Position numbers and translations under genes: made by a program. DNA of 64,000 nucleotides from Flavobacteriaceae bacterium (GTDB lineage: Bacteria > Bacteroidota > Bacteroidia > Flavobacteriales > Flavobacteriaceae), in contig JAVVDW010000017.1 of the NCBI GenBank assembly GCA_032251335.1, positions 546 to 64,545 of the forward strand. Direction: 5' to 3'. This document shows, in pieces, positions 2,892 through 19,631 of this stretch. Every line of letters starts with the position of its first letter. The first letter of the stretch is position 1. The notes under the pieces were generated by a model that was not told the origin of the DNA, did not search any database, and was given only the letters and a program-made list of their open reading frames with translations.

Positions 2892-3526
2892 CGGCATTTC
2901 ACAAAATATCGCTTCCAAATTGGATTTCGATTTTCAAAGAGTTTTCTTTTTATTTTCAGAAAGGCCAGCGCCGTCAGCATAGCATCACCTTCAGCGGTGT
3001 GCCTTCCATGTCCGGATATGTTTAACTCATGACAAAGCGCGTCCAAAGAAACGGCTTCGTTTTTGTGGTCGTATGTATAGAGCGGTTTTAGCTTTTTAAA
3101 CAGGTAGGCCGTGTCGAGCGTAGGATTTCGGAGTTTCATCAAACCATTTCTCTCAAGTGCGCAGTTGAGCATTTTTATATCAAAACAAATATGATGACCG
3201 AGCAAAATGGCATCAGCCACGTAAGCGATAAATTTTTCCAATGCTTCTTTTTCTGAAATTTTACTTTCCGATCCCTTTTTGGTGATGCCGTGAATGCCGG
3301 CAGTTTTTGAGTTAAAATAATCTTGGGTAATTAAACACTCAAACCTGTCAGCAAGCAAAATTTGATTGTCTTCAATGGTGATACAAGCGATAGAAAGTAA
3401 TCTGTCGATACGCACGTCAAGTCCGGTAGTTTCTGTATCCAATACTACAATTTTGGAGACAGAAGCCTTGTTTTGAGTTTTTAAAAAACGCGTTATAAAA
3501 GAACCCATGTTATAGGCAGTTTGCAC
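2888..3526 (-). CDS. 3'-5' exonuclease, DnaQ/DEDDh family
   Basis: VVLDTETTGLD (ExoI), GHHICFDIKML (ExoII) and HTAEGDAMLTA (ExoIII, DEDDh). Confidence 0.88.
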   Translation of the reverse strand: MQTAYNMGSFITRFLKTQNKASVSKIVVLDTETTGLDVRIDRLLSIACITIEDNQILLADRFECLITQDYFNSKTAGIHGITKKGSESKISEKEALEKFIAYVADAILLGHHICFDIKMLNCALERNGLMKLRNPTLDTAYLFKKLKPLYTYDHKNEAVSLDALCHELNISGHGRHTAEGDAMLTALAFLKIKRKLFENRNPIWKRYFVKCR

Positions 3527-3531
3527 TAAAA

Positions 3532-5688
3532 TCAGACCAAGAGTTTAAAGAGTTTTCGGTAAAACTCGTCTGGTTTAAAAGGTTTGTTGATGATTTCATC
3601 CATGCCGCAAGCCAGAAGTTCTTGTCTTTTTTCGCTTAGGGACAAAGCGGTGAGTGCGATGATTGGTATAGAGGTATTAAAAATACGAATGTAGCGTGTG
3701 GCTTCAATGCCACTGATACCCGGCATGTGTATGTCCATCAAAACGCCATCGTATTTTCTGTATTTGACCATTTCTACAGCCTTGGAACCATTGTCAACCA
3801 CTTCGCAAGAGATTCCCACGCTTTCTACAATTTTTCGGGTGATCATTTGGTTTATTTTGTTGTCTTCTACAATTAAGAGTTTTTTTCCTTTGAGTTTTTC
3901 CAAGTCAAAATGTGCGATTTCTGCACCCTCTTCTCCGTTAGTCAGTTTGGCGGTCAAATCGAAATAGAAAGTAGAGCCTTCGCCCACTACGCTTTTTACA
4001 GCAATTTCGGAATCCATGACAGCCAAAATACGTTTTACGATGGCCAAGCCCAAACCGGTGCCGCCAAATTTTTTATTGATTTCGGTATCACCCTGAGAGA
4101 AATTGTCAAAAATATTTTCGAGGTGTTTTTGGTCAATTCCGATACCCGTGTCTTGAACTTCAAAAGTAAAATTAACAGCAGTGTCTTTTAGCCAATTTTG
4201 TTTGACGCGCACCCAAACCGTACCATTTTCTGTGAATTTAACGGCGTTTCCAATTAGATTGACAATGACTTGATTAAACTTAACTTCGTCTGTGACGATT
4301 TTTTCGGGCAGATTGGGATCTATTTCCAGAATTAATTTGGTGTTGTTTTTCTTGGCAGCTTCCTGAAAAGATTGGATGACTTGTTGGAGGGTGGTTTTGA
4401 TCTCAAACTGATTAAAATCAACGGTTGCCTTATCAGAATCGAGTCGGTTGATTTCGAGGATGTCATTGACCAGTGCTAACAAATACTCACCCGAATACCG
4501 CAGGGATTCCAAATTTTCTAGTTGCTCCGGTTTGGGATTTTCTTTGAGCAATAAATGGGAAATACCCGTCACGGCATAGAGCGGCGTTCTCAATTCGTGG
4601 CTGATGGTAGATATAAAACGTTCACGAATAGAGGCGATGTCTTCCGCTTTGTTTTTGGCTACTTCCAATTGTTGGTTTTTAATGCGAAGCAGTTCGTTGG
4701 ATCGGAGGCGCAAGTTATTATTTCTATAGAATGTACTTGTCAAGAAAGCCAATACAATAATCAGTGCCAAACCCATAAAAGTAATCAGATACAAATTGCG
4801 AATCGTTTTGGCATCAGCGGCTTGGCCTGCTTTTAAACGATCGATGATTTCCGAATAATACTGACTGTTTTCCGATTTTTTTAGCGGGAAGAATTGGTAT
4901 TGGTTTGACAATAGTATTTTGTCTTTTTCCTCTTGATGTTTTTTGAGATACAAGAGGGCTTTTTCGGCGTCTTTTATCGCTTCATAATAATCAGACAGCC
5001 GCTTATAAGCCATAGAAGACAGCATGATATAATTTTCCTGAAGTGCAAAATTGAGCACCTCTCTGCTCTGCTCATAGGCTGTTTCGAAATTCCCGACTTT
5101 GAGGTGTGCCCCGGCAAGTTTTGCTTTGGCATAGTTGATTTCATAGCCATTTCCGTATTGTTCATAAGTCTTGAGCGAAAATTCATAGCGCTTCAACGCT
5201 TCTTCGGGCAGTTGACGATGTTCGTCAAGAATTCCTAAATGAATATAAGTTTTTGCCTTAAAATATTTGCTCGGCAGTCTTACGGTCGAATCGATGGCCG
5301 TGTTGAAATACAAATTTGCCAAGTCCAAATTTTTCTTGCCTAAGTGGAAAATGCCATAGGCCAAATAGGTTCTGCAAATCAGTGAATCGTTGTTTTTTTG
5401 TTGGATTTCAAGGGCTTCTTTTAAGTGCTGTTCGGTCTCATCAAAGTAGTTGAGTGCCATGTACGCTTCTGTGAGTAAAGTGCCGAACCTCGCCTGCTGT
5501 AGTGCATTATTTTCCAGCATAGCAAAATCATACACTTCTCTAGCTAAAACAGCTGCTTCGGTAAAATTAGCTTTCTCGTATAGATGCGTAAATTCATTTT
5601 TCTCTGCCACATAGTCAAAATCTTGCGATTGAATAACGCAACAAAAACAGAGAAAAAGTGTTAAAATCTTGAGTTTAGTTAGTGTCAT
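3532..5688 (-). CDS. Hybrid sensor histidine kinase/response regulator with N-terminal TPR-like repeats
   Basis: Signal/TM segment, TPR-like helices and a TM. H-box SHELRTPL, N/G boxes (NLIGNAVKFT, DTGIGI, GGTGLGLAI), and a C-terminal receiver domain (LLIVEDN...DIHMPG...ALTA...KP). The ATG at 5688 is preferred over the track TTG at 5715, which overlaps the -7 box. Confidence 0.9.
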   Translation of the reverse strand: MTLTKLKILTLFLCFCCVIQSQDFDYVAEKNEFTHLYEKANFTEAAVLAREVYDFAMLENNALQQARFGTLLTEAYMALNYFDETEQHLKEALEIQQKNNDSLICRTYLAYGIFHLGKKNLDLANLYFNTAIDSTVRLPSKYFKAKTYIHLGILDEHRQLPEEALKRYEFSLKTYEQYGNGYEINYAKAKLAGAHLKVGNFETAYEQSREVLNFALQENYIMLSSMAYKRLSDYYEAIKDAEKALLYLKKHQEEKDKILLSNQYQFFPLKKSENSQYYSEIIDRLKAGQAADAKTIRNLYLITFMGLALIIVLAFLTSTFYRNNNLRLRSNELLRIKNQQLEVAKNKAEDIASIRERFISTISHELRTPLYAVTGISHLLLKENPKPEQLENLESLRYSGEYLLALVNDILEINRLDSDKATVDFNQFEIKTTLQQVIQSFQEAAKKNNTKLILEIDPNLPEKIVTDEVKFNQVIVNLIGNAVKFTENGTVWVRVKQNWLKDTAVNFTFEVQDTGIGIDQKHLENIFDNFSQGDTEINKKFGGTGLGLAIVKRILAVMDSEIAVKSVVGEGSTFYFDLTAKLTNGEEGAEIAHFDLEKLKGKKLLIVEDNKINQMITRKIVESVGISCEVVDNGSKAVEMVKYRKYDGVLMDIHMPGISGIEATRYIRIFNTSIPIIALTALSLSEKRQELLACGMDEIINKPFKPDEFYRKLFKLLV

Positions 5689-5780: not shown

Positions 5781-6653
5781 TTATAAAATATGTTTCTGCG
5801 CTTTGTAGGACGAACGCACCAAAGCACCACTTTCTACATGTCTAAAACCGAGGTCTTTACCGATTTGTTCATATTTGTGAAATTGCTCCGGTGTGATAAA
5901 TTCTTTTACAGGCAAGTGCTTTTTGGAAGGTTGTAGGTATTGTCCGATGGTAACTACATCTACCTCGGCATTTCTCAAATCGTGCAATGTTTGTATTACT
6001 TCTTCTTCTTTTTCACCCAGTCCCAACATAATGCCGGATTTAGTTCGGCGTACGCCTTGCGTTTTTAAGTATTGTAAAACTTCCAGACTTCTGTCGTATT
6101 TTGCTTGAATACGTACTTCGCGGGTAAGTCTTCGCACCGTTTCTAAGTTGTGAGAAACGACTTCGGGTGCTACTTCTACAATACGGTCAATATTGCGGTG
6201 CACACCTTGGAAATCCGGGATTAAGGTTTCCAGGGTGGTTTTAGGATTCATCCGCCTGATTGCCATAACCGTCTCGGCCCAAATAATAGAGCCCATATCT
6301 TTGAGGTCGTCTCTATCTACCGAGGTGATGACGGCATGTTTGATGTCCATTATTTTGATAGATCGCGCCACCTTTTCTGGTTCTGCCCAATCCACCGTTT
6401 CGGGTCGTCCGGTTTTGACGCCGCAAAAGCCGCAAGATCGGGTACAGACATTTCCCAAAATCATAAAAGTGGCTGTACCTTCGCCCCAACATTCGCCCAT
6501 ATTTGGACAACTTCCTGAGGTACAGATGGTGTTGAGTTTATAATTTTCTACCAGGCTGCGAAGTTCCGTATATTTTTTCCCGGTTGGAAGCTTCACGCGA
6601 AGCCACTTGGGTTTGGCGGTGGGCAATATATGTGATTTTTCTATTGTTTCCAT
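5781..6653 (-). CDS. lipA: Lipoyl synthase
   Basis: [19 protein letters not shown] and CTRSCGFC radical-SAM/auxiliary cluster motifs; 290 aa. Confidence 0.97.
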
Positions 6654-6671
6654 AGCAAAATTTTAAAGACA

Positions 6672-6679
6672 CAAAGGTA
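6672..6679 (-). promoter_or_regulatory. -7 box TACCTTTG (minus strand)
   Basis: The plus strand reads CAAAGGTA, 19 nt upstream of the lipA ATG, in the 34-nt gap after the Nramp-like gene. Confidence 0.45.
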
Positions 6680-6687
6680 TGATTTAC

Positions 6688-7911
6688 TTATAAGATGCTC
6701 AAATACCAAATGCTAAAACTAACCAAAAAGAACAAACCGCTCCAGCTGAGCAAACGTAGCCACTTACCCGGTCTGTCTGCCACCGGCATATGCTTTCCGG
6801 TGACCAATCTGAAATTCATCAAAGCGTAAAAAGGTGCAGTCAAAAATGAGGCAATCGTGGCAAACTTGACCAGAGCACCCATTTCTGAAATGTAGAAAAA
6901 GAAAATAACAAGTGTCCCTGTTGCGAGTATCCCGATCCATAAAAAGTACCCCTTGCTGTTTTTTTTTCCTGTTAGAATCTCAACAGCCCGATTCATAGAC
7001 CTTGGCGATGCATCCAATGTGGTGATGGTGGTGCTAAACATAGTAGTAAAAGCCGCTACGGCTACCACGAGCGCGGCACCCGAACCCAGCGTTTCTGTGT
7101 AAAGGCTTAAGAGTTGCGAGGTAAAAGCAGATGCATTATCGCTAAAGCCTATGGGGCGGCCAAACATCACCAAAGCACCTAAAAGCAGAAAGAGAATCGC
7201 CAGAATCACGGCGCCTATAAGGCCAAAATTGAAATCGCGTAAACCTGATTTTTGGTCGAAAGACGCGTTTGACTTCTTTTTTTCCAACACCCATAGCGAT
7301 TGCCAAACCGAGATGTCCAAAGGGGCCGGCATCCAACCCATAAAAGCAATTAGAAATACAATCCCTGTGGTTTCGGTTGGGAAGGCTTGCGCCCAATGTA
7401 TCGAGGGTGTTTTTTGGAAGGCAAATGCCACGGCCAAGAGCGTGCAAATCGTGAGTGTGAGAATAATAACTTTCATGATTTTATCCAAAAAAGCATATTT
7501 ACCAACAGTTAAAATAAGGATGCAAACTAAGGTAATAACGCCACTCCAAACAGCTAGGTTGTCTGTGAGCCCAAATAAATGCCCGGCAATATTGGCTGTC
7601 ACGATAGTAACCGCAGTTTGTATGGTAAACATGGTTGCAAAAGTGATGACGATATAGACCACCAACACCCATTTCCCCATTTTTCTGTAGCCCTCCAGCA
7701 AGCTTTCACCGGTTGCCAGTGCATATCGCGGTCCGTATTGAAAAAATGGATATTTAAAAAAGTTGACCAACAAAACGGCCCAGAGCAATCCCAAGCCGTA
7801 ATCGGCACCGGCACGGGTAGATTGTACCAAATGAGACACGCCCACAGCCGCACCGGCAAACAAAAGGCCCGGGCCTAGATTTTTGACGAAGGAAACCGCT
7901 TTAGGAAACAT
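6688..7911 (-). CDS. Nramp-related (SLC11-like) membrane transporter, divergent
   Basis: 407 aa with ~11 TM segments. N-terminal NLGPGLLFAGAAVGVSHLVQSTRAGADYG aligns by eye with the Nramp TM1 region. FMGWMPAPLD aligns with the TM6 MPH region. Confidence 0.75.
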   Translation of the reverse strand: MFPKAVSFVKNLGPGLLFAGAAVGVSHLVQSTRAGADYGLGLLWAVLLVNFFKYPFFQYGPRYALATGESLLEGYRKMGKWVLVVYIVITFATMFTIQTAVTIVTANIAGHLFGLTDNLAVWSGVITLVCILILTVGKYAFLDKIMKVIILTLTICTLLAVAFAFQKTPSIHWAQAFPTETTGIVFLIAFMGWMPAPLDISVWQSLWVLEKKKSNASFDQKSGLRDFNFGLIGAVILAILFLLLGALVMFGRPIGFSDNASAFTSQLLSLYTETLGSGAALVVAVAAFTTMFSTTITTLDASPRSMNRAVEILTGKKNSKGYFLWIGILATGTLVIFFFYISEMGALVKFATIASFLTAPFYALMNFRLVTGKHMPVADRPGKWLRLLSWSGLFFLVSFSIWYLSIL

Positions 7912-8527
7912 GATCGCGTTGGGTTTTTATGATTTCTGCCAACAATTTTTTGGCGCGCAAGAGCTTTATTTTTACGTTGTTGACGGGTTCCTGTTTGGCG
8001 ATTGCAATTTCTTTGTACGAAAGTTCCTTAAAATAGCGCAGGTTGATGATTTCTCTGTAATCCGGTTTTAGTTTTTTGATACATGCCAACAAATTGGACA
8101 AGTTTTGCTCCCGAATCAATTCGTCTTCTTGGGTGAGTGATTCATCGGCAATATCGTGTTTGCGAATGTCCGAGGCTTGTTCCATATCGATGTTTTTGGC
8201 CGCATTTTTTTTGCGAAGAAAATCGATGTAAACGTTTTTAGAAATGGCTATCAGCCAAGTTTTGAAAGTGTAATTGGCGTCGTAAGTGTTTAGTTTGTCA
8301 AAAGCTTTGGAAAACGTTCGTATGCAAATGTCTTCAGCGTCGTTTTCATTTACATTTCTTTTCAGGTGAAAGGCCAATACTTCTTGCCAATACAAGTCGA
8401 GGAGGCTGCTGAATGCCTGTTGCTGTCCTTTTTTGGCAGCTTCTATAAGTGCAGAAACATTTTTTTCAGGATTCAAACAGTTCGGTTTTGATTGGAGGCG
8501 ACAAAAATCAACGGTAAATATACACAA
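7901..8527 (-). CDS. RNA polymerase ECF-type sigma-70 factor
   Basis: Region 2 (LIEAAKKGQQQAFSSLLDLYWQEV...ICIRTFSKAF) and region 4 (REIINLRYFKELSYKEIA). There is no in-frame ATG near the N-terminus. The start is either the TTG at 8527 (track) or the TTG at 8476. The 3' end overlaps the Nramp-like start by 11 nt. Confidence 0.85.
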   Translation of the reverse strand: MCIFTVDFCRLQSKPNCLNPEKNVSALIEAAKKGQQQAFSSLLDLYWQEVLAFHLKRNVNENDAEDICIRTFSKAFDKLNTYDANYTFKTWLIAISKNVYIDFLRKKNAAKNIDMEQASDIRKHDIADESLTQEDELIREQNLSNLLACIKKLKPDYREIINLRYFKELSYKEIAIAKQEPVNNVKIKLLRAKKLLAEIIKTQRDHVS

Positions 8528-8715
8528 GGAAAATCAATAGTGAAATTTTTTATGTTGACAAACAAAAAACAAGTGTTCATTTTGTATTGTATATGAAAGG
8601 CAGTGTAAATAAAAGCATATCTTTCGTGTTAAATAACACTTATAAATTAAAGACAATTAATGGTTTGGCATAAAATTAGCTATTTTTTGTAGCATTGTTA
8701 TTTACAGTTTTTTTG

Positions 8716-8723
8716 TACATTTG
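8716..8723 (+). promoter_or_regulatory. -7 box TACATTTG with a TTG about 18 nt upstream
   Basis: Exact TAnnTTTG 39 nt upstream of the ATG at 8762, with a TTG at 8695-8697 as a possible -33 element. Confidence 0.45.
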
Positions 8724-8761
8724 CAGACGTTTTATTAACTTTATAAAACAATTTTAAACAG

Positions 8762-8998
8762 ATGTTAGAAAAAGAATTTAAATATTACCTTGATAATCAG
8801 GATAAATTCGTAAAGGAATACGAGGGGAAATATTTGGTTATTGTTGGGGAAGAAATAGTTGGTATATATAGTTCAGATGAAGAGGCTTATTTTGAATCTG
8901 AAAAGAAATATAAACCTGGAACTTTTCTAATACAATTTTGTGAGTCAGGAGATAGTTCTTACACGCAATCATTCCATTCACGTGTAAGTTTTGTTTAA
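8762..8998 (+). CDS. Small acidic hypothetical protein (DUF5678-like pattern, unverified)
   Basis: 78 aa, AT-rich. The core GKYLVIVGEEIVGIYSSDEEAY...KPGTFLIQF resembles small proteins I recall as DUF5678. It is followed 3 nt later by the protease ORF. Confidence 0.6.
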   Translation: MLEKEFKYYLDNQDKFVKEYEGKYLVIVGEEIVGIYSSDEEAYFESEKKYKPGTFLIQFCESGDSSYTQSFHSRVSFV

Positions 8999-9001
8999 TT
9001 T

Positions 9002-9505
9002 ATGGATAGTGTTTCTAAATCATTTACACTTCAATCAGATAGTACTTTAAGAGTGTTGCAAACTCCTTGCGGTGTTTGTCCTGCTTATGACCCTTTGAGT
9101 GGTGGTACATACCCAAAAGTCGAGCAATTTACAGGCTTATGGGATACTGGTGCAACTGGTACAGTAATAAGTCAAAAATGCGCTAAAAAATTAAATTTAA
9201 AACCTATAAGCAAAGCAAAGGTTTTTCACGCAAATGGGGAATCAATTGTAAATGTCTATGCAATAAATCTATTTCTGCCAAATCAAGTTGGTTTTCAGTT
9301 TATTAAAGTTACAGAAGGTATTCTTAACGGAATAGATTTATTAATAGGTATGGATATAATATCAAGAGGGGACTTTGCTATAACAAATTTTGCAGGTAAA
9401 ACAACCTTTTCCTTTAGAGTTCCCTCTACACAAAGAATTGATTTCGTTGAAGAATCAAAGCCTAAAACTATTGTAAAAGCCGGTAAAAAAAATAGGGAGA
9501 AATGA
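9002..9505 (+). CDS. Retropepsin-like (clan AA) aspartic protease
   Basis: GLWDTGATGTVIS contains the D-T-G-A active-site signature, and LLIGMDIISRG is the usual downstream motif. 167 aa with no signal peptide. The ORF ends just after an A8 tract. Confidence 0.8.
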   Translation: MDSVSKSFTLQSDSTLRVLQTPCGVCPAYDPLSGGTYPKVEQFTGLWDTGATGTVISQKCAKKLNLKPISKAKVFHANGESIVNVYAINLFLPNQVGFQFIKVTEGILNGIDLLIGMDIISRGDFAITNFAGKTTFSFRVPSTQRIDFVEESKPKTIVKAGKKNREK

Positions 9506-9506
9506 C

Positions 9507-9563
9507 CCTTGTCATTGTGGTAGTGGTAAAAAGTTTAAACAATGCCATGGCAGAAATTCCTAA
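9507..9563 (+). other. SEC-C type Cys/His metal-binding motif encoded in the +1 frame directly after the protease stop
   Basis: CCT TGT CAT TGT GGT AGT GGT AAA AAG TTT AAA CAA TGC CAT GGC translates to PCHCGSGKKFKQCHG(RNS*). This matches the CxCGSGKKxKxCHG SecA C-terminal motif. Confidence 0.7.
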
Positions 9564-9724
9564 TTTGTGCATGACAATCTTTAAAGATTAAAATCAGTAA
9601 CTTTTATTATCATTGATTTTGATGCCTTTAAAAGAGGTCTCTACTGCACAGATACATAATTCTGAATGAATAAGCAGCAGTATGTATGGTGATCAAACCC
9701 AGTTTTTGAAGTAATAAACGGGGT

Positions 9725-9928
9725 TTAGCTCTTTTTTTCTCCCTCACAAGTATCAAACTGATCGGGTGTTTTGCCGCAAAAACTACAGGCTTCACCATCC
9801 TGATTCAGAAAAGGACTTTGGCTGGCGCAAGTGCCTGAAAATTTACCGTCTTTCTTAGCCCAGATTTTTATGGCAATACCGGCAAAAGACAAGCCAATTA
9901 ATACGATGGTAATCAGAAAAAGTTCCAT
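9725..9928 (-). CDS. Small single-TM cysteine-rich membrane protein (NqrM/DUF539-like architecture, unverified)
   Basis: 67 aa with an N-terminal TM (LFLITIVLIGLSFAGIAI), followed by GTC...CSFCG...C. Confidence 0.5.
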   Translation of the reverse strand: MELFLITIVLIGLSFAGIAIKIWAKKDGKFSGTCASQSPFLNQDGEACSFCGKTPDQFDTCEGEKKS

Positions 9929-9946
9929 GACTGTTTAATTTCACTG

Positions 9947-9954
9947 CAAAGATA
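9947..9954 (-). promoter_or_regulatory. -7 box TATCTTTG (minus strand)
   Basis: The plus strand reads CAAAGATA, 19 nt upstream of the ATG at 9928. Confidence 0.45.
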
Positions 9955-10033
9955 AGGGATGGGATACTTATTCTAAAATGTGAGGCGTTAATTATTTTAT
10001 AAACCCCCAATAAATTGAGAATGAATGCGTTTG

Positions 10034-10041
10034 TAACTTTG
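10034..10041 (+). promoter_or_regulatory. -7 box TAACTTTG
   Basis: Exact motif 46 nt upstream of the guaA ATG at 10087. Confidence 0.45.
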
Positions 10042-10086
10042 TGCCTTTCGCCCAAATAGATTCTGACAATTGTGTTATTTTTGCGC

Positions 10087-11616
10087 ATGCAAAACAATGT
10101 ACTCATACTCGATTTTGGTTCCCAATACACCCAACTCATTGCCAGAAGGGTTCGCGAACTCAATATTTATTGTGAAATTTTCCCGTTCAACAAAATTCCG
10201 GAGGATATCTCTAGCTTCAAAGCAGTCATTCTTTCGGGTAGCCCGTCCTCAGTTCGGTCTGATACCGCACCCATTCCCGATTTGACAAACCTCAGAGGCC
10301 ATTTGCCTGTGTTGGCGGTCTGCTATGGTGCCCAATTTTTGGCCCATCGTTTCGGAGGCGAAGTCAATGCGTCCAACACACGTGAATACGGACGTGCAAA
10401 GCTCTCCTACGTTTCGCAAGATTGTCCGCTGTTTCAGAACATAGCAGTGGGCTCTCAAGTTTGGATGAGCCATAGCGATTCAATTATCCGCTTGCCTGAG
10501 GGCGCCAAACATATTGCCGCCACGCACGATGTTAAATACGCTGCTTTTCAGATGCCCGATGAGTTGACTTTTGGTATTCAATTTCACCCGGAAGTTTATC
10601 ATTCCACAGACGGGGCGCTGTTGTTAGAGAATTTTTTGATTCGTATCGCCAAGCTTTCACAAGATTGGACACCGGATTCCTTCGTAGAAATGACGGTTGC
10701 CGATTTGCAAGCTCAAATTGGATCCGATAGGGTAGTGCTCGGTCTTTCCGGTGGAGTCGATTCTACCGTGGCCGCAGTATTGTTGCACAAGGCCATTGGC
10801 AAAAATTTGTACTGTATTTTTGTTAACAACGGTTTGTTGCGCAAAAATGAATTTGAAAAGGTTTTGGATCAGTACAAACATATGGGACTCAATGTAAAAG
10901 GCGTCGATGCAACGGATCAGTTTTACAAAGCATTGGCGGGCAAAGAAGACCCCGAGCAAAAGCGAAAAGCCATTGGTAAAACTTTTATCGAGGTTTTTGA
11001 CCAAGAGGCGCATGCCATTCAAGATGTTTCTTGGTTGGCGCAAGGCACCATTTACCCGGATGTCATCGAATCGGTATCTGTAAACGGGCCGTCTGTCACC
11101 ATCAAATCGCATCACAACGTGGGCGGGTTGCCCGATTTTATGAAGTTGAAAGTTGTAGAACCTTTACGGATGTTGTTTAAAGATGAGGTAAGGCGTGTGG
11201 GTCGCTCTTTAGATATCGCAGACAGTTTGTTGGGAAGGCATCCTTTTCCCGGTCCTGGTCTGGCCATTCGCATCTTAGGAGACGTCACTGCCGAAAAGGT
11301 ACGGTTGTTGCAAGAAGTAGATGATATATTTGTGGAAGGACTCAAAACTTGGGGTTTGTATGACGATGTTTGGCAAGCGGGTGTCATTTTGTTGCCGGTT
11401 CACAGCGTGGGTGTAATGGGTGACGAAAGAACCTATGAAAAAGTAGTTGCATTGCGGGCTGTTTCTTCTACGGATGGGATGACCGCAGATTGGGTACATT
11501 TGCCCTATGAGTTTCTGATGAAAGTGTCTAACGACATCATCAATAAAGTGAAAGGCGTCAATAGGGTAGTGTACGATATTTCCTCTAAACCGCCATCAAC
11601 CATAGAATGGGAGTAA
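10087..11616 (+). CDS. guaA: GMP synthase (glutamine-hydrolyzing)
   Basis: GATase domain ([27 protein letters not shown]), ATP-PPase SGGVDS loop, and a C-terminal PPSTIEWE. The ATG at 10087 is preferred over the track start at 10072. Confidence 0.97.
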
Positions 11617-11633
11617 TTATAAACGAAACAGTT

Positions 11634-13490
11634 ATGCTGAGAAAAACATATTTTGCAATTCTATTTGTTTTTATCATTCAACTTTCTTTTGCGCAGTTAC
11701 ATACAGTTCAAAAAAGAGAATCTATTACCGATATTGCCCGACAATACAACATGACGCCGTTTGAATTGTTTCAGCTCAATCCGCATGCAAAAAACGGTCT
11801 CGAAGAGGGAGAAGTACTTCGTGTGACGCAAGTAGTGCCACTTGGCACACAGCTTTATGATGCATACAAAGTAGGAAGGAAAGAAACCCTTTTTGCGATA
11901 GGTCAGAAATTTGGAATTTCCGTAGAAGACATCAAAAAATACAACCCGATTTTGGAGCGAAATGAATTGAAAAACAGGCAAATTCTCCTGATTCCGGTCA
12001 CCTACAAGGATATGTTTGGCTCAGAAAAAGCATCGGCTGCCATAACCTATGTTGTCAAACCCAAGGACACCAAGTGGCGTGTTGCATATTTACACAATAT
12101 GACGCTTGAGGAATTGGCGACATTAAACCCCGGCCTTACAGAAGTTTTAAAGCCGGGTGAAATACTGAAAGTTTCTCATCCCATGAGGACTTTACCCACA
12201 TTCGATGCTGATAAATATGATTTGTACGAAGTAAAACCCAAAGAAACGCTTTATAGTTTACTCAAAAAGTGGCAAATTTCCGAGGCTGCGCTCAACGAAT
12301 TGAATCCCCAACTGAAAGACGGATTAAAGGCCGGGATGATGTTGAAAATTCCTAAACAGCAACAGGAAAAGTCTTTTGAAGTTTTTGAAAATGTAGCCGC
12401 ATTACAGTCAGAAACGCTTAACACAAAACCCTATAAATTGGCATTCATGTTGCCGTTTGCCATCTCCAAAATGGAAGCTGATACACTTTTTGATTACAAA
12501 AAACAGTTTCGTACCGATAGAAATCTTAATGTGGTTCTCGATTTTCTTTCCGGTGCACAAATGGCCATAGATTCGGCCAGAGCTTTGGGGATGAATGTTT
12601 CCTATAAAGTCTATGACACCGAAAACAACCCGGAAAAAGTGGCGCAACTCATTAGGCAAAACCGATTGGAAACCTTAGATGCATTGATTGGACCGCTTTA
12701 TCAAAAAAATGTGGAACGCGCCGGAGAAATACTCAAAAATGACAAAACACCTGTGTTCTCGCCACTTACAAACCGCGAAATTCAACTCTTTCAAAATTGT
12801 TTCCAAACGGTGCCATCTCAAGAATTGATGGAAGATAAAATGATTGATTTTATAGATGCCCATTACACCGATCAAAACATCATCATCATCGCCGATAGAA
12901 AATTGCAAGGAAGGGCAAAAAAAATTCAATCAAAGCTTAGAGAGAGTTTGGTGATTACCCCGGACACAAACGGATTGGTCAAGCCTGAGTTGCTGCGTAC
13001 CGCTCTTGCTGTTGACAAACCCAATTGGGTGTTGTTGGAGTCTGAAAACTTAAACCTTATCAGCACAGTAGTGCCCAAGCTGGCAGAATTTTTAAAGGAC
13101 TACAAAATTACCCTACTCACCACAGACCGAAACCGTTTTTTTGAAGGAGACGAAGTGCATAGCAGCCATCTTGCGCGTTTGCATTTTCATTTCCCTTCGG
13201 TTGACAGACCCTATCAAAGAGATGATTTGAATACATTTGCGAAAGCTTATAAAGAGAAAAATGGCATCAGCCCGGATAAATTTGCCGTGCGTGGTTTTGA
13301 CTTAACCTTTGATGTTTTAATGCGTTTGGGAAGTTATGAGGATATTTATGAAAGTTTTAAAGAAAACATCACAACTTCTTATGTAGAAAATGCTTTTTCA
13401 TATCAGAAAAAACTATTAGGCGGATTTGTCAATCGGGCATTTTACATACTTAAATATGACGGTTATAAAATCATAGAAGCGACCCCATGA
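11634..13490 (+). CDS. LysM-repeat protein with a periplasmic-binding-protein-like C-terminal domain
   Basis: Signal peptide (FAILFVFIIQLSFAQ). Four LysM repeats (HTVQKRESITDIARQY, YKVGRKETLFAIGQKF, YVVKPKDTKWRVAYLH, YEVKPKETLYSLLKKW), followed by ~350 aa of PBP-like sequence. Confidence 0.85.
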   Translation: MLRKTYFAILFVFIIQLSFAQLHTVQKRESITDIARQYNMTPFELFQLNPHAKNGLEEGEVLRVTQVVPLGTQLYDAYKVGRKETLFAIGQKFGISVEDIKKYNPILERNELKNRQILLIPVTYKDMFGSEKASAAITYVVKPKDTKWRVAYLHNMTLEELATLNPGLTEVLKPGEILKVSHPMRTLPTFDADKYDLYEVKPKETLYSLLKKWQISEAALNELNPQLKDGLKAGMMLKIPKQQQEKSFEVFENVAALQSETLNTKPYKLAFMLPFAISKMEADTLFDYKKQFRTDRNLNVVLDFLSGAQMAIDSARALGMNVSYKVYDTENNPEKVAQLIRQNRLETLDALIGPLYQKNVERAGEILKNDKTPVFSPLTNREIQLFQNCFQTVPSQELMEDKMIDFIDAHYTDQNIIIIADRKLQGRAKKIQSKLRESLVITPDTNGLVKPELLRTALAVDKPNWVLLESENLNLISTVVPKLAEFLKDYKITLLTTDRNRFFEGDEVHSSHLARLHFHFPSVDRPYQRDDLNTFAKAYKEKNGISPDKFAVRGFDLTFDVLMRLGSYEDIYESFKENITTSYVENAFSYQKKLLGGFVNRAFYILKYDGYKIIEATP

Positions 13491-18059: not shown

Positions 18060-18575
18060 ATGAACAACCACATCCACGACGGCACCAACTTGCGCATTCG
18101 TTTTGAAAAAACGTTGGCAGCACCACCCGATTACTTTCTTGAAAAATTTAAAAAAGCCAAAGCAGCATCATCGCCTCAATACAAAATTAAAATGCTCGAC
18201 AGGCATGTGTGGTTGAGCATGGGTGCTTCCGAAAAGAAATACTATTCGCCTACTTTGCATTTAGAATTTGAACCTTTAGACGACGGTTCAAAGACCCTTT
18301 TAAGAGGACTTTTTGGTCCGGAGGCCGGCTTGTGGACTTTGTTTATGTTTCTGCACTTTGTGGTGGCCGGTATTTTTATCATGTTTTTGACTTTTGCTTA
18401 TTCAAATTGGGTGATGCATCAGTCCTACGTATTGGATATCATCGTGATGGTTTTGATGTTGGTGGCGTGGTTTGCACTCTATTTTTTTGCCCGCCTCAAT
18501 CGAAAAAACGGCATGCCGCAGGCGGTTATGCTTTACCGACTGATGGAAGCGGTTTTGGATGAAAAGCACAATTAA
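18060..18575 (+). CDS. Hypothetical membrane protein
   Basis: 171 aa: an ~85-aa soluble N-terminal part followed by two or three hydrophobic helices. I do not recognise a family. Confidence 0.6.
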   Translation: MNNHIHDGTNLRIRFEKTLAAPPDYFLEKFKKAKAASSPQYKIKMLDRHVWLSMGASEKKYYSPTLHLEFEPLDDGSKTLLRGLFGPEAGLWTLFMFLHFVVAGIFIMFLTFAYSNWVMHQSYVLDIIVMVLMLVAWFALYFFARLNRKNGMPQAVMLYRLMEAVLDEKHN

Positions 18576-18676
18576 TGAACTAAATGTGAGTTACTTAAAT
18601 TCGAACATGCCGCCCTTGTGCATCCGGTTTCATCAAATTCATTAGTGTTTTTGTTTGAAAATTCGCAATTTTTCTC

Positions 18677-18684
18677 TATATTTG
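18677..18684 (+). promoter_or_regulatory. -7 box TATATTTG
   Basis: Exact motif about 145 nt upstream of the ATG at 18829. A near-match (ATAAATTTTG) also sits immediately before that ATG. Confidence 0.3.
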
Positions 18685-18828
18685 TATCAATATCAGGAAC
18701 GCAGCAATGCGTACCAACCGAGCAACAAAGCCACGGTGGTTTAGTATATGGACAGTTCAGTCAAAAAAATGAATTCCTCACTGTTTCGTTTACTATCCTG
18801 ATGCATAATTAGATATAAATTTTGCATT

Positions 18829-19548
18829 ATGAAGACTGTTTTTACAAAAAGAGAAGGTGTTTCCATCAATTCGAGCATTGATTTTGGCAGTACCGAAAAC
18901 ATTTCCCACGAATTTGTATTTCTATTGAAGGTTTTTGAATACCATTGGAAAGTCAATATTTCTTACCATTACCGAACGACGGATGATGGCTATATCCAAC
19001 TGGCCACCCAAGACGAGAAAAAAAAGTATCACATTGTTGCCCAAATTGCGCTCAGATTTGAGTGCCCGAAAATCGACAAAATGTTAGTGCTTTTTCACAA
19101 TTTTTTGGCACAACGTTCTGATGAATATAAACCGATGTTTTTGAGCAGTCCGATTCTCACCGAAGAAGACTTTTCTAATATTTTGGACGAAGTAAACAAT
19201 AGGCGCGACGAGAATATACGAATGGCTGAGGCCAAACAAAATCGCTTCATTGATTATTTGCAAAAGCAAGGTTTTAAGCCACAAGCCGACGGTTGTTCTG
19301 TTCATACTTGGACAGCTTGTTGTCCTAACGGAGAAGGTCACCACAAAATCGCTATCTCCACACAAGACGATTCATGGCATTGCCCGCTGTGCGAAAAAAA
19401 GGGTAATCAACAGGCTCTAGATAAATGGCTGATGCAGTTGCGCATGCACAACGATCAAAAAAAAATATCCAAAATGCTGAAAGAACTCGACAAGCACGGA
19501 CGCATGGTTTCGCCGGATGTTATTGGATGGTGGATGAATCGGTATTAA
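18829..19548 (+). CDS. Hypothetical protein with a C-terminal DnaG/primase-type (CHC2-like) zinc finger and no catalytic domain
   Basis: FIDYLQKQGFKPQADGCSVHTWTACCPNGEGHHKIAISTQDDSWHCPLCEKKGNQQALDKWLM aligns by eye with the E. coli DnaG zinc-binding region (...[40 protein letters not shown]). The N-terminal 150 aa are unrecognised. Confidence 0.65.
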   Translation: MKTVFTKREGVSINSSIDFGSTENISHEFVFLLKVFEYHWKVNISYHYRTTDDGYIQLATQDEKKKYHIVAQIALRFECPKIDKMLVLFHNFLAQRSDEYKPMFLSSPILTEEDFSNILDEVNNRRDENIRMAEAKQNRFIDYLQKQGFKPQADGCSVHTWTACCPNGEGHHKIAISTQDDSWHCPLCEKKGNQQALDKWLMQLRMHNDQKKISKMLKELDKHGRMVSPDVIGWWMNRY

Positions 19549-19631
19549 TTGTGCTAAAAGGAAAAATCAGTAAGATTTTGGTTTTAAAGCGGATATAATC
19601 TTAGATTTGTGTTACAAACACAAAATAAAAA

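Follow-up and report, generated by a model that had tools for sequence, protein, structure and literature searches.

The described proteins closest in fold to the protease analyzed here are APRc of Rickettsia conorii, which is a membrane-embedded autotransporter-like protein, Ddi1, and the retroviral proteases, all of which combine a retropepsin fold with a D-T-G-A-type catalytic motif. The SEC-C element, by comparison, is known from the C-terminal domain of the translocase component SecA, where this small knuckle binds zinc or iron and contacts SecB, ribosomes and membranes, and tails with the same CxCGSGKKxKxCH(G) signature are found in YchJ- and YecA-type proteins. Two further kinds of described system resemble parts of the locus examined here: (i) two-gene modules of the toxin-antitoxin or defence type, in which a small upstream partner precedes the effector gene; and (ii) intact genes split by an indel in an A-run, with rescue by unprogrammed slippage on poly(A), as documented for disrupted ORFs (Baranov et al. 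2005, PMC1088944) and for tssM of Citrobacter rodentium (PMC4256274).

The locus lies in a 64,000-nucleotide stretch of a Flavobacteriaceae genome assembly (hereafter the window), and its nearest counterpart is an uncharacterised family in which a retropepsin-like protease domain (PF13975/PF13650) is followed by a C-terminal SEC-C domain (PF02810). The DTGA site, the upstream partner of 78 aa and the sequence of the tail are all the same in the window as in this family; the difference is one extra A, which places the tail out of frame, so that the predicted product has 167 aa rather than 186 aa. The features that define this junction are as follows.

9002 to 9505, plus strand: ORF for an aspartic protease (retropepsin-like, clan AA) that encodes 167 aa, has its DTGA at residues 48-51 and closes with a frameshift-derived end, ...GKK-NREK and stop
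9474 to 9476, plus strand: TAA that closes the SEC-C frame upstream, leaving the tail without its own start codon
9485 to 9492, plus strand (contig C17:10030-10037): A8 homopolymer, one A above the in-frame A7 or AAGAAAA of relatives
9492 to 9563, plus strand: stranded SEC-C zinc-binding tail, IGRNDPCHCGSGKKFKQCHGRNS and TAA, in the +1 frame and fully intact (PF02810, 44.1 bits)

Re-reading the sequence bore out the description of the junction given in the original prediction. The protease ORF extends from 9002 to 9505 (167 aa) and ends ...GCC GGT AAA AAA AAT AGG GAG AAA TGA, with the TGA at 9503-9505; the A8 run just upstream had been placed correctly, and its position is exactly the junction between the linker and the tail of the protease. 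Past this run, the +1 frame reads KKIGRNDPCHCGSGKKFKQCHGRNS up to a stop at 9561-9563. Following the TAA at 9474-9476, the letters of the same frame are AAG CCG GTA AAA AAA ATA GGG AGA AAT GAC CCT TGT..., and from stop to stop it translates as KPVKKIGRNDPCHCGSGKKFKQCHGRNS. Since that TAA shuts the frame and no ATG, GTG or TTG occurs between it and the motif, the tail cannot be a separate gene, as had been claimed, and we rejected its independent translation. The SEC-C motif is therefore outside any translated ORF of this genome: its frame is closed, startless and out of register with the protease. When the tract is read as A7, on the other hand, a single 186-aa protein results that matches both the protease and the SEC-C domains in Pfam, again as predicted. 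Two other candidate explanations for the arrangement were discarded: the ORF at 9502-9591 as carrier of the tail, because it lies in the third frame and its product is unrecognisable, and a -1 frameshift, because it meets a TAG at 9493-9495 after one codon.

The protease ORF scored above the Pfam thresholds for both PF13975 (gag-asp_proteas, 35.8 against 28.2) and PF13650 (Asp_protease_2, 31.8 against 24.3), and the catalytic residues W47-D48-T49-G50-A51 are invariant in the two alignments of the protease family (A1 and A2). The body of the window protease is 92% identical to homologue P0001 and close to P0123, the family head. The fold was assessed from an AF2 model of P0123, a 95%-similar homologue of the window ORF, rather than from the window ORF itself. 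This model (pLDDT 83) has the retropepsin fold, with Rickettsia APRc as its best Foldseek match (5c9f_A, E 2.8e-07) and the Ddi1, FIV, HIV and RSV proteases next; residues 141-165 are disordered and link the protease domain to the C-terminal zinc knuckle. Although the family model shares its fold with APRc (PDB 5c9b, 5c9f), Ddi1 and the retroviral proteases, sequence identity to these proteins is only 12-23%. Moreover, the window family, unlike APRc, shows no membrane or autotransporter context, and its members differ in an additional beta-hairpin at the N-terminus, which bears a near-invariant CxxC, in their zinc tail and in the small partner to which they are obligately linked. In alignments A1 and A2, conservation of the CxxC pair on this hairpin (C23, C26) is 90% or higher, and the pair is kept even in protease homologues that lack the SEC-C tail; it may form a second site for metal or redox chemistry that does not depend on the tail. 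Family members are named 'SEC-C metal-binding domain-containing protein' in nr and 'predicted aspartyl protease' at JGI.

The 25-residue peptide encoded in the +1 frame matched Pfam SEC-C (PF02810) with 44.1 bits and an E value of 1.8e-11, the cut-off being 20.4. The statement that CxCGSGKKxKxCHG is a SEC-C motif occurring on many unrelated proteins agrees with the NCBIfam matches of the tail, which are the SEC-C ends of YchJ-like proteins, PRK05590, a methionyl aminopeptidase and SecA. The signature is thus common to the window tail and to the SecA, YchJ and YecA types, but whereas the SecA-type SEC-C sits on a translocase, the window tail belongs to a protease and is left untranslated in the normal frame.

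The coding sequence of this motif has a property of its own. In metagenome loci, the KK-IGRN that precedes SecA-, YchJ- or YecA-type tails is often encoded with AAA AAA ATA, so that in-frame runs of A8-A9 are common there. In the metagenome contigs L117-L145, many long ORFs with SEC-C ends, which are probably SecA-like, encode ...KK-IGRNDPC as NNA AAA AAA ATA GG and hence carry an in-frame A8-A9. SEC-C coding sequence generically creates slippage-prone runs of A7-A9. As a separate observation, two of the metagenome contigs (L130 and L144) show an apparent frameshift inside the second KK of the SEC-C motif.

Using the read-through sequence of 186 aa as the query, we identified 1773 homologues in the database, the great majority of which are 182-190 aa long and contain both the protease and the SEC-C domain, a fused architecture that, at this number, is far beyond chance. 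The closest homologues (85-92% identical) have the C-terminus ...KKIGRNDPCHCGSGKKFKQCHGRNS. To compare reading frames, 89 related loci were taken as DNA. The SEC-C domain is in frame with the protease in 59 of these and out of frame in two, while 26 loci contain no SEC-C domain, the tail being either absent or replaced by a different basic tail, and two could not be evaluated by the script. Metagenome and MAG copies were used for the comparison of tract lengths, as the protease is absent from all 60 related genomes of the same genus, family and order; the only matches in these genomes are short, confined to the SEC-C region and located where other ORFs, mostly long ones, end.

The relatives nearest to the window copy have A7 or an interrupted run at the junction, and in all of them the tail is in frame. 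Three loci from independent metagenomes (L103-L105), which share 90% nucleotide identity with the window over the whole cassette, read GGT AAA AAA ATA GGA, that is, A7. The copy of Tenacibaculum adriaticum, likewise in frame, reads CGC AAA AAA ATA GGC, and in L098-L100 the run is interrupted (AGT AAG AAA ATA). In pairwise comparisons with L103, L098 and L100, neither coding region of the cassette contains any indel but the extra A of the window. SEC-C coding potential is clearly present downstream of the protease in the orthologues, and the proposal that the ancestral gene was a retropepsin-SEC-C fusion holds: 59 of the 89 loci are fused in frame, L103-L105 carry GGT-A7-TAGG in frame, and the database search recovered the same architecture as the norm. 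Judged by these sequence comparisons, there is strong support for a fused protease with SEC-C of about 186 aa as both the family norm and the ancestral state.

Loss of the tail is not confined to the window. Naturally tail-less relatives of 151-163 aa exist (P0073, P0083-85, P0089, P0100 and P0109), and several loci have damaged tails: in L026 the frame shifts before the tail is reached, within a stretch that contains A4 and A7 runs (L026:3440-3620); L106 has a deletion adjoining an A6 run (L106:760-902); L059 ends after GRNS (L059:3400-3490); L061 has a nonsense codon inside the SEC-C motif (near 3520); and in L044 the second Cys of the motif is replaced by Trp (near 3540). Some of these damaged copies come from low-coverage or very long, perhaps long-read, contigs and could themselves be errors. 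Split tails are confined to loci with A-runs of at least 6 at the junction (A7 in L026, A6 in L106), while the 54 loci whose runs do not exceed 5 are all unsplit, which fits the view that a long junction A-run is a mutational hot spot for splitting off the tail. As splits occur only at long junction A-runs and whole clades lack the tail, these data suggest that the SEC-C tail is a modular, loss-prone add-on.

The protease gene and its upstream neighbour are contained in a discrete islet, the features of which are listed here.

8583 to 9595, plus strand: AT-rich islet of 1,013 bp holding the cassette, absent from congener G003 (about 92% nucleotide identity), where 19 bp are found instead of it
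8665 to 9575, plus strand: DNA homology to other cassette copies in unrelated contexts (90% to L103-L105, 88% to L098/L099, 79-80% to L100 and L018)
8716 to 8723, plus strand: putative promoter TACATTTG, a match to TAnnTTTG that precedes the partner ATG by about 40 nt
8762 to 8998, plus strand: partner gene of 78 aa with a weak DUF5678 match and a conserved C-terminal FHSRVxF(A/V)

In a blastn comparison of the window with G003, positions 6653-8582 and 9596-12500 align contiguously. The islet has a GC content of 30.8%, as against 42.5% and 42.4% in its flanks, and no convincing terminal repeats or target-site duplication were found at its borders. The -7 promoter consensus of the Bacteroidota is TAnnTTTG, and TACATTTG, by its sequence, may serve as the promoter of the partner gene; a scan for sigma-70 promoters returned nothing on the plus strand.

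In 87 of the 89 loci, the gene directly before the protease is a homologue of the partner, and in the window the partner stop is located 3-4 nt before the protease ATG. The match of the partner to DUF5678 (PF18929) has an E value of 0.001 and does not reach the family cut-off. Its alignment (A3) shows an invariant C60 and G63 in addition to the strongly conserved C-terminal FHSRVxF(A/V), and its AF2 model has a mean pLDDT of 80.8 and a disordered C-terminus; comparison of this fold with the PDB gave no match (best E 1.6). The free, conserved FHSRVxF(A/V) end looks like a substrate or pseudo-substrate of the adjacent protease and is a candidate for such a role.

The partner-protease pair is found in many phyla and in unrelated neighbourhoods, once beside a ParD antitoxin gene, and the nearest copies come from Flavobacteriaceae-type genomes such as that of T. 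adriaticum. Because the contexts vary, many phyla are represented and the islet is present in one congener and absent from the other, the cassette is mobile. About 0.9-1.0 kb in length, it was acquired horizontally and encodes the 78-aa partner and then the retropepsin-like protease. The presence of a small upstream partner (in 87 of 89 loci), the uneven spread over the phyla and the discrete AT-rich islet are likewise features of toxin-antitoxin-like and defence modules, and by analogy the cassette appears to behave as a mobile module of this kind. However, its PADLOC match is weak (PDC-M08B, E 0.0078-0.013). PHROGs returned matches driven by the tail and none to the protease body, and a literature search on SEC-C with retropepsin and on DUF5678 found nothing relevant and no experimental study of the cassette.

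Two other elements of the window were noted in passing. A second islet of about 1 kb (18559-19608) is also absent from G003, where 93 bp are found instead, and holds an ORF of 239 aa (18829-19548) that is rich in Cys and His (CCPNGEGHH...HCPLCEKKG) and zinc-ribbon-like. Between the cassette islet and guaA, a Cys-rich ORF of 67 aa on the minus strand (9725-9928) contains one hydrophobic segment (...CASQSPFLNQDGEACSFCGKTPDQFDTCEG...); its sequence is common to the congener and it is thus outside the cassette.

We consider the most probable history of the junction, at roughly 60%, to be a genuine and recent A7-to-A8 insertion in this horizontally acquired cassette. A recent real indel was one of several options offered by the original prediction, and the A7 relatives, the single indel and the lack of non-synonymous change in the tail single it out as the likeliest. 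The ancestral protease would have been joined by about 25 residues of flexible linker to the SEC-C zinc knuckle, giving a protein of about 186 aa. In the lineage of the window, the two Lys codons in front of the tail would then have become AAA AAA, creating A7; as AAA accounts for 82% of the Lys codons in the window genome, this strong preference of the host explains a drift from AAG AAA to the hazardous AAA AAA. Replication slippage would have added one A, and the ribosome would now read ...GKK NREK and stop, producing a 167-aa protease with its catalytic domain intact and its zinc tail lost. As in the documented cases of poly(A) rescue, an indel in an A-run has split an intact gene, and slippage of RNA polymerase, or of tRNA-Lys on the A8, may restore a small, unprogrammed full-length fraction; in the window, where the run is just 8 A's, such rescue is no more than a possibility.

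The age of the event can be gauged from the nearest relatives. Compared with L098/L099 (88% nucleotide identity), the 24 tail codons have 7-8 synonymous and no non-synonymous differences, while the protease body has 40 synonymous and 14 non-synonymous differences. From the tail counts, it follows that purifying selection acted on the tail during practically the whole period of divergence, and therefore that the frameshift is very recent, or is not real, or that the tail is still made. Provided that it is real, the frameshift appears from these counts to be evolutionarily very recent, which would explain why the stranded tail has not yet decayed.

The second of these options, a homopolymer artefact of base-calling, consensus building or polishing in an organism that has A7 and an intact 186-aa gene, is the best of the alternatives, if on balance unlikely. 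The damage amounts to one base in a homopolymer of 8 nt, a classic site of error, and the rest of the cassette is undamaged; a tail that is 100% intact at the protein level, with no non-synonymous changes, is expected equally from a sequencing error. Furthermore, the 167-aa protein is known from one NCBI contig only, with no second assembly of the strain in the collections, and an exact look-up found that the exact 186-aa form is absent from the collections. The two other out-of-frame copies come from a megabase-scale contig, guessed to be long-read (L026), and from a contig of 2.5x coverage (L106), so that errors are plausible in both. The assembly itself, however, is not of a kind prone to coding homopolymer errors. 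Its contig ends share exact 77-mers, rather than 21-, 31-, 55- or 127-mers, and it has N-gaps of varying length, which fits a de Bruijn assembly at k=77 (SPAdes-type) from Illumina reads, the platform being deduced indirectly; in Illumina/SPAdes-like assemblies, consensus errors at A8 are uncommon. Across the genome, long ORFs in different frames abut at 0.86% of A/T runs of at least 8 nt, as compared with 0.92-0.98% at runs of 5-7, so that ORF breaks are not over-represented at long runs. Over 61.6 kb aligned with G003 (about 92-93% identity), we counted 37 indels of a length not divisible by three, none of them in long ORFs save two at no more than 50 nt from an ORF end. Genome completeness is 99.87%, and about 326 A8 runs on the sense strand are located within ORFs that are intact. 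Coding homopolymer errors in this assembly are rare, not impossible, and we infer that the extra A is present in the DNA of the organism.

Phase variation or recoding of some kind would leave the A8 as a functional element rather than a lesion, and even jointly these readings are improbable. The broadest of them, a decidedly improbable one, treats the A-run as a slippage switch, acting through DNA phase variation or RNA polymerase slippage, that yields tail-less and zinc-tailed isoforms in varying proportions, with A8 as one setting. If this were true, a mobile toxin-antitoxin-like cassette could use it to tune the targeting or toxicity of its protease, and the A8 would be no dead end. A phase-variable contingency tract in the strict sense, with A7 (tailed) and A8 (tail-less) switching in the population and the assembly recording the majority state, is very improbable. 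A7 and A8 alleles do both occur among close relatives of the cassette, split tails are restricted to copies with long A-runs, and an uncorrupted tail is what periodic expression would preserve. Against this, an efficient slipped-strand switch would call for a run longer than A8, the genome contains 746 A/T8 runs, among which the tract is not special, most in-frame loci have runs of 2-5, the tract being unconserved in the family, and a metagenome scan for the window allele with A7-A9 found no copies.

Other homopolymers of this genome, all outside the window, were recorded independently of the junction. Poly-G tracts at C7:306-314 (G9) and C24:28762-28771 (G10) have near-identical flanks, TTGGnTAATTnATTA-Gn-TAyTTTTGnATTCAA, and may both derive from a repeat whose G-tract varies; in addition, C13:78343-78357 is a C15 run and C1:278014-278030 is an A17 run.

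That a programmed +1 ribosomal frameshift or transcriptional slippage on the A8 sets a fixed ratio of tail-less to tailed protease is highly improbable, because the signature of programmed recoding, a conserved shift site together with a conserved split arrangement, is absent from the family. The mechanism is not without precedent: A-runs of 8-9 can allow RNA polymerase slippage in some bacteria, and while selection against A/T runs in coding regions typically sets in from about 9, certain IS elements seem to make use of a run of 8 A's (PMC1088944). Moreover, tRNA-Lys can re-pair perfectly one base forward on an A-run, and A/T runs are progressively depleted from the ORFs of the window genome from a length of 7-8, the share inside ORFs being 0.84 for runs of 5, 0.75 for runs of 7, 0.64 for runs of 8 and 0.51 for runs of 9, with a coding fraction of 0.875 as the reference. 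E. coli RNA polymerase, by contrast, needs at least 7 T's, or more than 7 A's, in order to slip, and is inefficient on poly(A), according to one study (PMC6260861). The window A8 is not special, since the 326 sense-strand A8 runs occur in ORFs that are intact. Of the 59 in-frame, tail-bearing loci, 54 have 2-5 A's in their longest run ahead of the first Cys codon and five have 7, and a run of 8 occurs in none. A metagenome scan for at least 8 A's before a SEC-C-like tail yielded 29 loci, none of them a split retropepsin; most are long in-frame ORFs with a SEC-C end, presumably SecA-like ones, and the others consist of fragments at contig edges or of short frames that are unrelated. A search for stimulatory elements was negative: the 88 nt that follow the A8 form no significant RNA structure (z -1.62; 12 of 200 shuffles fold as well), and the zero-frame A-site codon, AAT, is common in the window genome. 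The AGGGAG after the tract was considered as a Shine-Dalgarno-like signal and rejected, as it is the coding sequence for G-R-N and common to the in-frame relatives. The programmed +1 event, a further option of the original prediction, is accordingly unsupported.

If the A7-to-A8 insertion is genuine, the 167-aa product, which by its sequence keeps the whole catalytic domain, probably folds and cuts; that it is still active is made probable by the natural tail-less relatives of 151-163 aa. By analogy with other SEC-C proteins, we infer that the tail may tether or regulate the protease, in which case its loss would change targeting and might attenuate the cassette if the protease is toxin-like.

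The most likely meaning of the junction is a routine one: a recent homopolymer frameshift that trimmed a dispensable C-terminal module of an accessory gene, or else an assembly error. For annotation, the 167-aa nr protein is best regarded as a truncated allele of the 186-aa protease and SEC-C family. More interesting than the frameshift is the cassette itself. The combination of an FHSRVxFA partner with a retropepsin-like protease is widespread, mobile and experimentally untouched, and the occurrence of a natural tail-less allele beside natural tailed alleles offers a ready comparison for the role of the zinc tail.
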